From assembly GCF_029227855.1 (NCBI RefSeq), contig NZ_CP074357.1: a stretch of 64,000 nucleotides of DNA. The stretch is one strand, 5' to 3'. Source of the DNA: Escherichia coli. Lineage in GTDB: Bacteria; Pseudomonadota; Gammaproteobacteria; Enterobacterales; Enterobacteriaceae. Positions 17,201 through 23,200 of this stretch are shown here, piece after piece. The number at the start of each line of letters is the position of its first letter. The first letter of the stretch is position 1. A program made the position numbers.

Positions 17201-20200
17201 TAGGTGCACCAACAAGTTCTTTTTCTTCTAAGTCCGAAAGTATTTTATTGAACGTTACTCGTGACTTCCCAAAAAAATCAGAGAGATTTTTTTTATTTAA
17301 ACAGTGGTTGTAGATCAGTCTATCAACACCATCAACACTATCATCAGAAACAGATACTCTTGATGAAGCCATCAGAGATTCCTTAAGAGAAATCTGCTCG
17401 CTTTTCATGCGCTGACCAACGAGGGCGATCTTTTCAAGTAAATTCATGGTTATGACCTTTTTGCACTGAAAACCGACTTTTACGCATATATGTAAACTTT
17501 ACGCATAATGCGTCCATTTCATTGTTATACGTACAATTCTATCCTTTGTTTCAATCCTAAGCTAATGTTTGTTTACTTTTTTATGATTTTTTGTGAGCTT
17601 AACTTGCAGATGAGAGCTCAGACTCTCTAGTCCATACCTAATGCTCATTCTTTTTAAACCACGATTCTTGTCGACTTCTCTACGCTTTGACGTTATGAGC
17701 TCCATTAATGAATCTTCACGCCTACCCTATTTCTTGCTTAGACCCTAAAATCTATCTCACCGGTGTGCTGATTTACGTTTCCTAACTGTGAATCGTTGTC
17801 GTCAGTCCAGTCTAAAGATATGAGGTGTTAATCTCTTGAGTAGGCCCACTACGAATTATGGGAGCAGAGTTAGCAACCTAGCCCAGAACTGAAACCCAAC
17901 TTCAGGAGGCAACCCCAGTGTGGCGATTAAGGGGGTTAAATCTGCCAGCGGCTGACAGTGTCCTAGCTGCTGCTCAGTCACACCACGCCCTGATTAAATC
18001 TCCTGCCCGGTATTGTAAGGACCGAAAAAAGCCCGTGCATTTGTGTCGGCAGACCGGCATGAAGGAATATGACGTTAATCTGTATCAGCAGGCACTTTTC
18101 GCATGATGGGAGCAAGTGATAGCAACCCCGCCCAGAACGGAAGGCCAGCATCAGGACAAAACCCAAGTTTGGCGATTAAGGGGGTTAAATTTGCAAGCGG
18201 ATGACAGTGCCCCAGCTGCTGCTCAGTCACACCACGCCCTGAGTAAATCTCTCGCCAGGTCTTGTTATGACCGAAAATAGCCCAAGCACTGGTGTCGGCA
18301 GACCGGCATACAGGAATATGACGTTAATCTGTATCAGCAGATACATTTCGCATTATGGGAGCAAGAGATAGCAACCCAGCCCAGAACTGAAGGCCAGCAT
18401 GAGGACAGAACACCAGTTTGGCGATTAAGGGAGTTAAATATGCAAGCTGCTGATAGTGCCCCAGCTCCTGCTCAGTAACACCACGCCCTGATAAAATCTC
18501 CTGCCCGGTAATGTAATGACCGAAAAAAGGCCGTGCACTGGTGTCGGCAGACCGGCACGCAGGAAAATGACGTTAATCTGTATCAACAGACACATTTCGC
18601 ATTAGGGGAGCAAGTGATAGCCACCCAGCCCAGAACTGAAGGCCAGCATCAGGACAGTACCCCAGTTTGGCGATTAAGGGGGTTAAATCCGCCAGTGGCT
18701 GTAAGTGCCCGAGCGGTGTATAAGAAATATTTCCCGAAGGACAATCTTTCGCTCGTACGATGAATAAAGTGTTCAACCCGGGAGCGGGGATCACTTAACC
18801 TGCTTAGCCTAAATCTTACGTCATTCTCTAAACGGAGTTTAAGCTTAATGGTCCTTAGAAAGTTAAAAGGACTACCCATAATGACGTCTTGAGATGGCGA
18901 ATAAAGGGTTTTAATCTGCCAGCGGCTGACAGTGCCCCAGCTTCTGCTCAGTCACACCACGCCTGATTAAATCTCCCGCCAGGTCTTATTATGACCGAAA
19001 ATAGTCCCCGTGCACTAGAGTCGTAAGACCGGCATACAGGAATGAGGCTTAAATCTTTATCAGGTTGCAAGGTTCGCATCATGGGAGCAAGGGCCTTGAA
19101 CTGTAGGTTAACATCAGAAAATCCCAGATTGGCGATTAAGGGGGTTAAATCTGACAGAGACTGAAAGTGCCTTCAGATGCTGCTCAGGTATATTACAACC
19201 TGAAAAAATCAAGCGTCTGTTCATGCGAATATCGAAAAAAGCTATGCACCAGTTTCGGCAGACCGGCATGGAGTAATGAGACGTTAATCTGTATCAGCTG
19301 GCGCATTTCGTATCATGGGAGCAAGTGTTAGCAACCCTGCCCAGGACGGAAGGACACTATCAGGACTGATCCCAGTTTGGAGATTAAGGGGGTTAAATCT
19401 GCCAGTGGCTGACAGAGCCTTCTGATGCTGCTCAGACATACTATGCAAAGATAAAATCACCCGTCCGTCCTTGTGATTATCGGAAAAAGCCATGCACCGG
19501 AGTCGGCAGATCGGTATGCAGTAATGTGACTTTAATCTGTATCAGCAGGCGCAATGGGAGCAAGTGTTAGCAACCGAGCCCAGGACGGAAGGACACTATC
19601 AGGACTGAACCCCAGTGTGGCGATTAAGGGGGTTAAATCTGCAAGCGGATAACAGTGCCCCAGCTGCTGCTCAGTCACACCACGCCCTGATTAAATCTCT
19701 CGCCAGGTCTTGTTAGGACCGAAAATAGCCCGAGCACTGGTGTCGGCAGACCGGCATACAGGAATACGACGTTAATTTGTATCAGCAGGTACATTTCGCA
19801 TTATGGGAGCAAGTGATAGCAACCCAGCTCAGAACTGAAGGCCTGCATGAGGACAGAACACCAGTTTGGCGATTAAGGGGGTTAAATCTGACAGCGGCTG
19901 ACAGTGCCTTCAGATGCTGCTCAGGCATACTACTCTCCCTGATATAATCTCCCATATGTTCTTGAGATCGTCGGAAATCGCCCATGCACCGGTGTCGGCA
20001 GACCGGTATGCAGTAATGTGATTTTAATCTGTATCAGCAGGCACATTTCGTATCATGGGAGTAAGTGTTAGCAAACCGAACCCCGCCCAGAACGGAAGGT
20101 CAATATCAGACCAGAATCCCAGTGTGGCGATTAAGGGGGTTAAATCTGCAAGCTGCTGACAGTGCCCCAGCTTCTGCTCAGTCACACCACGCCCTGATAA

Positions 20201-23200
20201 AATCTCCTGCCCGGTAATGTGATGACCGAAAAAAGCCCGTGCACTGGTGTTGGCAGACCGGCACGCAGGAATATGACGTTAATCTGTATCAGCAGTTACA
20301 TTTCGCATTATGGGAGGAAGTGATAGCCACCCAGCCCAGAACTGAAGGCCAGCATCAGGACAGTACCCCAGTTTGGCGATTAAGGGGGTTAAATCTGCAA
20401 GCGGATAACAGTGCCCCAGCTGCTGCTCAGTCACACCACGCCCTGATTAAATCTCTCGCCAGGTCTTGTTAGGACCGAAAATAGCCCGAGCACTGGTGTC
20501 GGCAGACCGGCATACAGGAATACGACGTTAATTTGTATCAGCAGGTACATTTCGCATTATGGGAGCAAGTGATAGCAACCCAGCTCAGAACTGAAGGCCT
20601 GCATGAGGACAGAACACCAGTTTGGCGATTAAGGGGGTTAAATCTGACAGCGGCTGACAGTGCCTTCAGATGCTGCTCAGGCATACTACTCTCCCTGATA
20701 TAATCTCCCATATGTTCTTGAGATCGTCGGAAATCGCCCATGCACCGGTGTCGGCAGACCGGTATGCAGTAATGTGATTTTAATCTGTATCAGCAGGCAC
20801 ATTTCGTATCATGGGAGTAAGTGTTAGCAAACCGAACCCCGCCCAGAACGGAAGGTCAATATCAGACCAGAATCCCAGTGTGGCGATTAAGGGGGTTAAA
20901 TCTGCAAGCTGCTGACAGTGCCCCAGCTTCTGCTCAGTCACACCACGCCCTGATAAAATCTCCTGCCCGGTAATGTGATGACCGAAAAAAGCCCGTGCAC
21001 TGGTGTTGGCAGACCGGCACGCAGGAATATGACGTTAATCTGTATCAGCAGTTACATTTCGCATTATGGGAGGAAGTGATAGCCACCCAGCCCAGAACTG
21101 AAGGCCAGCATCAGGACAGTACCCCAGTTTGGCGATTAAGGGGGTTAAATCTGCAAGCGGATAACAGTGCCCCAGCTGCTGCTCAGTCACACCACGCCCT
21201 GATTAAATCTCTCGCCAGGTCTTGTTAGGACCGAAAATAGCCCGAGCACTGGCGTCGTAAGACCGGCATACAGGAATGAGGCGTTAATCTTTATTAGGTG
21301 GAAGGATTCGCATCATGGGAGCAAGGGCCCTAGAACTGTAGGCTAACATTAGAAAATCACAGATTGGCGATAAAGGGGGTTAAATAAGTTAAAAGTCTTC
21401 GGTGAGCAAATTGGATAAATTTTCATAAACCAAAGCGTTAATATTAAACTTTTAGAAGAATGATTAAAGGATATTAAGTTTTGTATGCAATATGACACCA
21501 GTGATCTGTTTTCACTAATAATGCCGCGCTCCTTTGATTACCTTTGGTAAACAAAAATGTAATTTACGTGAATTTCATCTTATAAAGTCAGTATTGATGT
21601 TATAAATTTTGTTTACTTAATGCGTACACAACCTAAATGCGATTTGTAATTATGTCACTGTTTTTAAGCCATATTAATTATAAAACCAAAATTTGCAGCA
21701 CAGTGATGAACTCATTAAGTCATAACCTCATTTGTTTACTTAAGGCATACAATAAAAAACCAGATTCTTATGAGACATCTGGTTTAATTGTTTTTGCTTG
21801 AAGATATTTACTCTACGCGGCCAAACCCGCTGCTACTTCTTGAGCATAGAGAATTTCTATTGCCTCGCCATAGCTACAATTCTCGCGGCTTTGAATTTCC
21901 CATAATTTACTCCTGTCAGCACTATCCGTAGTAAAACAAAGCTCCATTTTCCGGTCTACGTATAACCGACAGATCTCTTGGAAGTTTTCGAACCTGACTA
22001 ACATCTCTGAAAACACCTTTTTGACTGTACGAATATTTTTCATTCGTTCATATTCTGCATCTGAAGTAGAAAAATATTTATTAGCCTTCATTGCTTCAAT
22101 GCTTTCTTTTTCTTGTTTCATGATTATCTTCCAAGGCGAGTTAGCAGTCAGGGCCCGGCCAACAGAAGAAGTAAAATAATCTTCAAACGACTGTGTGATA
22201 CAGATGCCAGCGCAGTTTGTTTTCCTGAACCTACGCCATGCCGCTTCGAGGAAGGAAGAGAAGAATTGGTTTGATTGATTTCCGGCACCTGATGAATTAT
22301 CAGGACGAATGTACTCCCAAGCTTCATCTAGGATGAACAAGCGACGACGCCCATCTTTTTTGATGAACATTGCATGCTGAGCAGCCTGAATGATAGACAT
22401 TAAAACAACTGTCTGAAGGTGGGGGGTGCCTTTTAGCTCCTCCAGTTCCAAAACAATAAATCTGCTGTCGAAGTTGATTGGAGGCAACGTATCGGTAAAC
22501 CGGTGCCCATAAATTCCACCTTCGCACCATGCTCCGAGTTGCTCCCCAATATCCTTTATACGTTTGTCTTCATGCTTCTTGCAACGCAGAGCAAAGCCGG
22601 TTATTGAACCGGTCCGACCTGATTTTCTGGATTCCTGGTACTCTTCTGCAATAAGCTGAAGCATCACTGATTGTTGATAATCATCGATAAGGCCTTTCTC
22701 TGAAGCCATAATTTTTAGCTGATTCAGAACCATTATGGTCTGAGCAACTTTGTCTTTTTCTGCATCGTTTGAAGTTGATTCACCGGTAAATTCAGGTGCT
22801 TCGTTAAATACATCGTCGTTAACAGTGATGTCAGTTAGGAAGGCAAAGGGATTTAGGGTGAAGTCAGGGGTTTTACCGAAATCAATAAATTGACTGTTTG
22901 TATATTGTTCCGCAATCCCCTGGTAAGAACGCCCCACGTCCACTACAAAAACTTGAGCACCATCAGGATCATCATCTGGGTATTCGTTTTCTAAAAAATG
23001 CTTAAATGTTGAGCGATAATGAACGAGGTTATTAGATCGCGGTCCAGCTCCAAGATAGTTATTGATTAGATATGCTGTCCAGAATGACTTGCCTGCACCT
23101 GACGTTGCACCAATAACCATGTTATAGCTTGCAGAAGTCTTGAAAATATCAAGTCCCATGAGTTGACCTTCACGAGAAACTAAACTCAGTACTGGTCTAT

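Follow-up and report, generated by a model that had tools for sequence, protein, structure and literature searches.

What is the function of the 3.5-kb array of long tandem repeats upstream of the partition gene parA on IncHI2 plasmids? We addressed this question for a 64-kb stretch of an Escherichia coli contig (NZ_CP074357.1; from here on, the window), which is IncHI2 plasmid backbone and to which all coordinates refer unless another record is named. An earlier note on this DNA had proposed that the array might be a centromere or an incompatibility determinant. Comparative evidence on a 21-bp dyad box, which lies next to parAB and co-varies with ParB, supports the centromere idea, and we predict that the array is, with high likelihood, the ParB-binding centromere (parS-type) of the IncHI2 type Ia ParA/ParB partition system.

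Each unit of the array carries one 21-bp dyad box

Tandem Repeats Finder (TRF) detected one array, at 17827-21325, with a period of 249 bp, 14.2 copies, 73% matches and a score of 3139. As an anchor within the units, we used the best-conserved 21-mer, TGGCGATTAAGGGGGTTAAAT, and searched the window for it, allowing up to 4 mismatches. This search returned 15 sites with starts from 17921 to 21365, all on the plus strand, and nothing outside of 17921-21385, including around both rep genes. Successive anchors are spaced by 249, 249, 249, 227, 235, 248, 240, 249, 258, 249, 249, 258, 249 and 235 bp. TRF and the 15 anchor boxes confirm the ~15 tandem 249-bp repeats over 3.5 kb upstream of parA described in the earlier note, and the period range of 227-258 bp given there is exact by the anchor spacings. 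In addition to 14 full units (227-258 bp), the array comprises a terminal box and, on the side of parA, an incomplete unit of 94 bp. Its GC content is ~0.50 compared with 0.33-0.42 in the flanks.

17827..21385, minus strand (parA sense): tandem array, proposed parS array of IncHI2 Par1 (from TRF, anchor positions, composition and monomer alignment)
17921..17941, minus strand: box 1 of 15, TGGCGATTAAGGGGGTTAAAT on the plus strand, that is ATTTAACCCCCTTAATCGCCA in parA sense
18170, 18419, 18668, 18895 (the most degenerate), 19130, 19378, 19618, 19867, 20125, 20374, 20623, 20881, 21130 and 21365: starts of boxes 2-15

In parA sense, the box reads ATTTAA-CCCCC-TTAA-TCGCCA, and its TTAA/TTAA arms form a dyad around the G5/C5 core. 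There is one such dyad box per unit, all 15 have the same orientation, and the nearest is located ~470 bp from the parA start codon. In an alignment of 33 distinct monomers from five IncHI2 arrays, the columns of the box are 0.95-0.98 conserved, which is the highest value in the monomer. The functional element is probably these 21 bp and not the 249-bp unit.

The box is shared with related plasmids and tracks ParB

Using tblastn with ParA, we identified the following relatives, for which the ParA and ParB identities are relative to IncHI2.

R27 (IncHI1): trhC-parA gap of 3.1 kb; 52-bp units x 21.6 and 54-bp units x 5.6; 23-28 boxes; ParA 89%, ParB 71.5%
p8025: 54-bp units x 10.5; 10-11 boxes; ParA 88%, ParB 73%
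Citrobacter MOBH plasmid, non-IncHI and with no trhC neighbour: 56-bp units x 6.4 directly upstream of parA; 7 boxes; ParA 89%, ParB 72%
IncHI5 plasmid p11219-IMP (NZ_MF344561.1): 67-bp units x 42 upstream of parA and 67-bp units x 14 downstream of parB; ParA 64%, ParB 48%
Providencia plasmid pPROV280-1 (NZ_CP096283.1): no array, single boxes at 6877 and 9455; ParA 64%, ParB 54%
Vibrio plasmid: C5-N4-TCGC pattern absent; ParA 49%

The consensus 21-mer is identical in the window, a second IncHI2 record (L002), R27 and p8025, and is present with one change in the Citrobacter plasmid. In the arrays of R27, p8025 and the Citrobacter plasmid, the box is always located upstream of parA and on the parA-sense strand. 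Beyond the box, the IncHI2 units share nothing with the units of these three plasmids, and the spacers are unrelated. At 249 bp, the IncHI2 unit far exceeds the 52-67-bp units of the relatives, in agreement with the remark on its unusual length in the earlier note.

The box tracks ParB. It is unchanged, or has one change in the case of Citrobacter, at 71-73% ParB identity, and is altered at 54% (Providencia) and 48% (IncHI5). The p11219-IMP arrays (at 3766-6600 and 9315-10277 of that plasmid, the upstream one with a higher-order period of 334 bp x 8.3) contain 51 exact copies of CCCCCTTGTTCGC, and their box reads AAACAA-CCCCC-TTGT-TCGCAG. In pPROV280-1, AAACAA-CCCCC-TTGT-TCGCCA is located 124 bp upstream of parA and ACCA-CCCCC-TTGT-TCGCCA downstream of parB. 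Both arms change together, from TTAA/TTAA to ACAA/TTGT, and the dyad symmetry around C5 is kept, as would be expected of a site read by a protein dimer. The C5-N4-TCGC pattern is found on the parA-sense strand beside parAB in every locus, bar one opposite-strand match in locus L006, and the box accompanies parAB in plasmids that have no IncHI replicon by PLSDB typing.

Among these systems, Par1 of R27 resembles the IncHI2 locus in having the identical box on the same strand, the same position between the trhC stop and parA, and ACGCAT palindromes by parA. It differs in that the R27 units are 52-54 bp and form two blocks (25602-26744 and 27544-27846 of R27), whereas the 249-bp IncHI2 units form one, in its unrelated spacer sequences, and in the 756-bp higher-order repeat (see below) on the IncHI2 side. 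The parABC repeats of p11219-IMP have in common with the IncHI2 array a very large size, a higher-order period and the box architecture, but their units are 67 bp long, the sequence of their box is another, they flank parAB on both sides, and the ParB is only 48% identical.

We note that in the R27-like region of pT28R-F3 (NZ_CP142707.1, 6001-7250), parA is split into three short open reading frames (ORFs), due either to frameshifts or to sequencing errors, and that parB and the upstream repeats remain.

The partition proteins and the box resemble those of P1

The array is followed by the two genes of the partition system.

16194..17447, minus strand: parA, Walker-type partition ATPase of 417 aa, type Ia size (annotation, NCBIfam, match to P1 ParA)
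15193..16197, minus strand: parB, 334 aa, P1-ParB-like, with a helix-turn-helix (HTH) region and a PF08775 C-terminal dimer/DNA-binding domain

ParA agrees with the large Walker-type ATPases of type Ia systems (~400 aa, with an N-terminal extension), matches NCBIfam partition ATPases below the equivalog cut-offs and is 25% identical to P1 ParA over 264 aa (E 4.5e-16). ParB contains Pfam domain PF08775 at residues 207-330 (E 1.1e-10) and is 28% identical to P1 ParB (E 6e-22); over residues 150-330, it can be aligned with the P1 ParB fragment that was crystallised (chains 1ZX4 and 2NTZ; E 4e-16). The IncHI2 system is, therefore, like P1 ParABS in having homologous ParA and ParB proteins and a ParB with PF08775.

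The P1 record annotates the B-type sites of parS as TCGCCA and the A-type sites as ATTTCAC, ATTTCAA and GTGAAAT. In the IncHI box, written as ATTTAAC-CCCC-TTAATCGCCA in parA sense, the B-type hexamer TCGCCA is present without a mismatch, and ATTTAAC matches the A-type heptamer ATTTCAC at 6/7 positions. Moreover, the 8-mer AATCGCCA of the box, in which TCGCCA is joined to an inverted A-type-like arm, occurs in P1 GAAATCGCCA. Such a combination of A- and B-like parts would be expected of a site for a P1-type ParB, which has two modules that read DNA. In its layout, the P1 site is different: P1 parS is a single ~80-bp site downstream of parB around a site for integration host factor (IHF), whereas IncHI2 has 15 tandem boxes upstream of parA, the arms of which enclose a C5 core. 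We rejected the idea that every unit has an IHF site like that of P1 parS, as the whole array contains a single match.

In sopC of the F plasmid, a 43-bp repeat occurs 12 times in tandem, and every copy has an inverted repeat to which SopB binds. The IncHI2 array is similar in comprising tandem direct repeats with one dyad-symmetric site per unit in a system with a type Ia ATPase. It differs from sopC in that its unit is about six times longer (227-258 bp), in that it precedes the ATPase gene, whereas sopC follows the gene for the ParB homologue, and in that its units are diverged (61-96% identity) with a higher-order structure and copy-number polymorphism.

A separate palindromic block adjoins parA

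Outside of the box, the only sequence of the IncHI2 locus that is conserved with R27, p8025 and the Citrobacter plasmid is a block of palindromes close to parA, and at the equivalent place beside parA of R27, TRF detected a 20-bp repeat.

~17481..17533, minus strand: ACGCAT/ATGCGT palindrome block, starting 34 bp upstream of the parA start codon and including the perfect palindrome ACGCATAATGCGT at 17501-17513

This block is the probable parAB operator/promoter region and is separate from the array. Of the two functions that the position of the array had been thought to fit, a ParA operator or a centromere, we retain the centromere, while the palindrome block is the likelier operator.

The remainder of the 249-bp unit

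Among the 33 monomers, secondary conservation peaks of 0.88-0.92 are present at TCGGCAGACCGGCAT, GACGTTAATCTGTAT, ATGGGAGCAA and the AATC of CTGATnAAATCTCC, the last of which is invariant; outside of the box and these peaks, conservation is 0.72-0.85. Two of the secondary peaks hold TAAATCT or TTAATCT, which are similar to the right arm of the box. TAAATCT occurs 18 times in the array compared with 9 times in the remaining 60 kb, and TTAATCT 12 times compared with 2. These motifs may be accessory A-type half-sites.

In sensitive blastn searches of 72,556 records, the 228 non-box bases of a monomer matched IncHI2 records only (1127). The best-supported reading is that the ~228 bp of each unit are mostly IncHI2-specific filler that was co-amplified with the box, and that the box is the selected element. 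We found no support for the idea that the 249-bp unit is a decayed multimer or trimer of short box units: ungapped autocorrelation never exceeded 33%, and local alignments of the sub-segments were no better than those of shuffles (A-B 254/500, A-C 43/500 and B-C 258/500).

A more elaborate reading, which we hold tentatively and consider rather unlikely, is that each 249-bp unit would be a composite centromere module with a full A+B box and two conserved A-type half-sites, AGATTTAAT and AGATTAAC in parA sense. P1-like ParB dimers would then bridge sites within and between units, and the array would be folded into a higher-order nucleoprotein body, the size of which would be tuned by gain and loss of the 756-bp repeat. 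Because the identical box is common to both, this reading also includes that IncHI1 and IncHI2 centromeres would cross-react and cause partition-based incompatibility.

Higher-order repeats and array length

Three consecutive units of the array are duplicated.

19618..20373: higher-order repeat copy 1 (monomers of 249 + 258 + 249 bp), 0 mismatches to copy 2
20374..21129: higher-order repeat copy 2, with perfect identity extending 123 bp further, to 21252
18668..18894: degenerate monomer M4, which keeps the box and ~25 nt after it and is ~44% identical to the other monomers

The two copies have 0 mismatches in 756 bp, and perfect identity at a shift of 756 spans 879 bp (19618-20496 = 20374-21252). 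The duplication reported in the earlier note is thus real; its coordinates were off by 1, and it is perfect instead of near-perfect. The monomers otherwise belong to diverged subfamilies with 61-96% identity, that is, subfamily A (M1, M2, M3, M8, M10, M11 and M13; 86-96% identity), subfamily B (M6, M7, M9 and M12; ~79%) and subfamily C (M5 and M14; 88%). Neither for the remainder of M4 (18715-18894) nor for the spacer on the trhC side did blastn detect a homologue in R27, p8025, the Citrobacter gap or elsewhere in the window, and the M4 remainder also has none among the other monomers. In diverged IncHI2 lineages, a degenerate pair like M4 and M5 (227 + 235 bp) is found at the same position, and such a pair is present again at the trhC end of IncHI2 arrays other than that of the window. 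Based on this observation, we suggest that the array is old and that unequal recombination causes turnover of its edges and of the higher-order repeat.

Box counts in IncHI2 arrays are 15 in the window, 12 in L002, 12 in L003, 15 in pN1566-2 (L004), 11 in L005 and 20 in pN18S1350. The 756-bp block is present in one copy in L003, in two copies in the window and pN1566-2, and in four copies in pN18S1350 (CP082667.1). The array of the latter plasmid (2254-7218) is the largest seen, with its four 756-bp copies being perfect and a perfect 756-shift run of 2290 bp. Relative to pN1566-2, the window has a deletion of ~227 bp, i.e., one unit. The presence of the 756-bp block in 1, 2 or 4 copies among IncHI2 plasmids and the 227-bp unit deletion support the suggestion that the array expanded recently by unequal crossover.

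At the other extreme, the parA-traC gap of pSH111_227 (NC_019114.1, 5273-6655) is just 1383 bp and contains two boxes 462 bp apart. Either nearly all of the array has been deleted naturally in this IncHI2 plasmid, or its short-read assembly is collapsed.

Coding and RNA readings of the array

Every reading frame of the array contains 43-78 stop codons, and the six array ORFs of at least 60 aa match no NCBIfam family. A coding repeat (249 = 3 x 83) is therefore out, given the stops in all frames, periods that are not all multiples of 3 and the lack of family matches. The identical ORF peptides to which the earlier note had pointed are a trivial outcome of the duplication.

A promoter scan returned no site in the array and only two sites in total, both in the AT-rich spacers, which is below the number in shuffled sequences. 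The array has no Rfam match at E up to 1, and the single-strand fold of the monomer is ordinary compared with shuffles (z = 0.35). We rejected a noncoding RNA or a transcribed array because promoter-like sites, an Rfam match and an unusual fold energy are all lacking.

Gene context and distribution

21813..24494, minus strand: trhC/traC, conjugative-transfer ATPase gene, upstream neighbour of the array (annotation)
21739..21803, minus strand: intrinsic terminator of trhC/traC, stem-loop and U run just after the trhC stop codon (RNA fold, inverted repeat)

The terminator, which the earlier note had named, is real: its fold has an energy of -16.6 kcal/mol and a z of -3.03, and 1/200 shuffles was equally good. 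The array does not fill the whole interval from this terminator to parA, as had been stated, and reaches neither gene; AT-rich spacers without repeats separate it from parA, by 379 bp (17448-17826), and from trhC, by 427 bp (21386-21812). RefSeq has no feature annotated in the 4.4-kb trhC-parA interval, and 17448-21812 is also without any annotated feature in NZ_MZ152088.1, which is identical over the 10-kb query.

In PLSDB, 1128 records match this backbone, 250 of them at ≥99% over 10 kb. The array was found in 1127 of the 1128 matched IncHI2-type records, and the 5.6-kb interval that contains it is ≥99% identical in 261 independent plasmid records. Because of these records and because related plasmids differ by whole-unit indels, we judge the array to be genuine.

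The exact 11-mer TTTGTTTACTT has three copies in the 64 kb, all on the plus strand and within ~400 bp of the array edges (17568-17578, 21608-21618 and 21731-21741); an incomplete copy in inverted orientation is located at 21546-21555. In the R27 spacer, the 11-mer is not conserved. It could be a binding site or the scar of an amplified segment.

The window also contains the remains of a second partition system, ParM/ParR (10302-12087). Residues 1-229 of the 344 of ParM are left (12087..11401, minus strand), abutting a copy of ISKpn26, and a ParR-like gene is absent from the whole window. The parM::ISKpn26 truncation junction is common to at least 69 plasmid records with this backbone. In other IncHI2 lineages, parM and the parR-like gene are both intact, and in pN1566-2 the insertion sequence lies just downstream of intact parMR. 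The idea that the higher-order duplication compensates for loss of ParMR is out because pN1566-2 has the duplication with parM and the downstream gene intact; for the same reason, the duplication predates the loss.

DISCUSSION

We have described an array of ~249-bp units that, with high likelihood, functions as the centromere of IncHI2 plasmids. Several lines of evidence argue for this function. When the arrays that precede parA in IncHI2, R27, p8025 and the Citrobacter plasmid are compared, the box alone is common to all of them. No other part of the IncHI2 monomers is as well conserved, and the box tracks ParB and keeps to the parA-sense strand beside parAB. ParB is P1-like, based on PF08775 and the alignment to 1ZX4/2NTZ, and the box holds the P1-type TCGCCA. 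The array itself is noncoding, promoterless and without an Rfam match or unusual fold, the box is absent near the rep genes, and a distinct conserved operator-like block adjoins parA. Moreover, at least 69 plasmids of this backbone carry the parM::ISKpn26 truncation of the window, in which ParM/ParR is broken. Finally, in PMC4489591 and PMC13245405, which cite Lawley and Taylor 2003, the type I system (Par1) of R27 is reported as the major stability determinant of that plasmid. From this evidence, we infer ParB binding, the mode of recognition and centromere activity.

We envision that each ~249-bp unit provides one 21-bp dyad box that would be recognised by a P1-like ParB dimer; by analogy with P1, the HTH modules would read the A-type arms, and the C-terminal dimer domain would read TCGCCA. 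Fifteen boxes in the same orientation over 3.5 kb would nucleate a large ParB partition complex, which ParA would move over the nucleoid. ParA, with ParB, would repress parAB at the palindromic operator, which is located apart from the array in the 379-bp spacer. In each unit, the ~228 bp outside of the box would be IncHI2-specific filler that was amplified with it and may hold two accessory A-type half-sites. Unequal recombination, involving either single units or 756-bp blocks of three, would alter the length of the array.

Several points weigh against a centromere function. In classical type Ia systems (P1, F), the centromere is downstream of parB; in IncHI2, just 61 bp separate the parB stop and the next gene, and there is no box there. 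The IHF consensus WATCARNNNNTTR matches once in the 3.5-kb array (at 18443), so that there is no site per unit, unlike in P1 parS. Conservation of the box is only modestly above that of the remainder (0.95-0.98 vs 0.72-0.92 column identity), homogenisation alone could explain much of the similarity within an array, and the likeness of the box to the A and B boxes of P1 was noticed post hoc. Also, in the searchable literature, we found no published binding, stability or incompatibility experiment on the IncHI2 array.

Among other explanations, a mainly regulatory or silencing array is improbable and is also compatible with centromere function. In this case, ParA, or ParB as a co-repressor, would use the boxes as operator-like sites, which would control the expression of parAB or shield it from the Tra2 operon, and the true segregation site would lie elsewhere or need only a single box. 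Type Ia ParB proteins are known as co-repressors, and this explanation would fit the location of the array upstream of the parAB promoter region, the single box 124 bp upstream of parA together with boxes downstream of parB in the Providencia relative, and the arrays on both sides of parAB in IncHI5. However, a separate and better-conserved palindromic operator block is located by parA in all four close relatives, the nearest box is ~470 bp from the start codon, 15-28 boxes are far beyond the needs of an operator, and the 61 bp after parB contain no other candidate centromere. We consider it highly improbable that the array is a selfish or neutral satellite that is regenerated by unequal recombination, with the box similarity being due to common descent alone. 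A satellite would account for the frequent gain and loss of whole units, seen as unit deletions and as a higher-order repeat present 1, 2 or 4 times, for the typing of pSH111_227 as conjugative despite its having just 2 boxes, and for the lineage-specific filler that makes up most of each unit. It would not account for the observation that the 21-bp box was kept (with one change in Citrobacter) through a complete turnover of the spacers among IncHI1, IncHI2 and the Citrobacter plasmid, for the symmetric co-variation of the arms in distant relatives, for a strand and position relative to parAB that are kept in unrelated backbones, or for the presence of the array in 1127/1128 matched IncHI2-type records.

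Two further explanations carry very little weight. Long tandem direct repeats on plasmids are often iterons, and IncHI plasmids are multi-replicon, with two replicons in the window, so that a copy-number or incompatibility element titrating RepHIA or RepHI2 has to be considered; we assign this scarcely any probability, since the box is confined to the array within the window, with no copy near either rep gene (34535-35407 and 51970-52824), accompanies parAB in plasmids without an IncHI replicon by PLSDB typing, and resembles P1 ParB sites. On the basis of the absence of the box near both rep genes, we rejected a Rep iteron array. The chance that the array or the 756-bp duplication is an assembly artefact is practically negligible: perfect long repeats are hard to assemble, and the older record pSH111_227 has a much shorter interval that is maybe collapsed, but the interval is found in 261 independent complete plasmid records at ≥99% identity, and the differences between variants are whole multiples of the unit.

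Tandem-repeat centromeres and P1-type ParB boxes are already known, as are the short-unit repeats with the same box in R27. What is unusual in the IncHI2 array is the 249-bp unit, which is four to five times the length of those of its closest relatives, the diverged subfamilies together with a perfect higher-order repeat, the copy-number polymorphism and the position upstream of parA. We found no description of the IncHI2 array in the searchable literature, a search that did not cover the R478 genome paper, and a full-text search with the box sequence gave no match.

IncHI2 plasmids are major carriers of mcr-1, mcr-9, extended-spectrum β-lactamase and metal-resistance genes (PMC7355605, PMC10076803, PMC4855149), and their main partition site is apparently unannotated. 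If the array is the centromere, the 21-bp box would be a concrete target for plasmid curing or incompatibility strategies, and cross-reaction with IncHI1 centromeres would be predicted. The relatives would then also provide a natural series for relating centromere architecture to the size of the ParB complex, from single boxes through arrays of 52-67-bp units to 249-bp units with 1, 2 or 4 higher-order copies. In its satellite-like dynamics, with diverged monomers, a higher-order repeat and unit indels, the array is a bacterial parallel to eukaryotic centromeric satellites.

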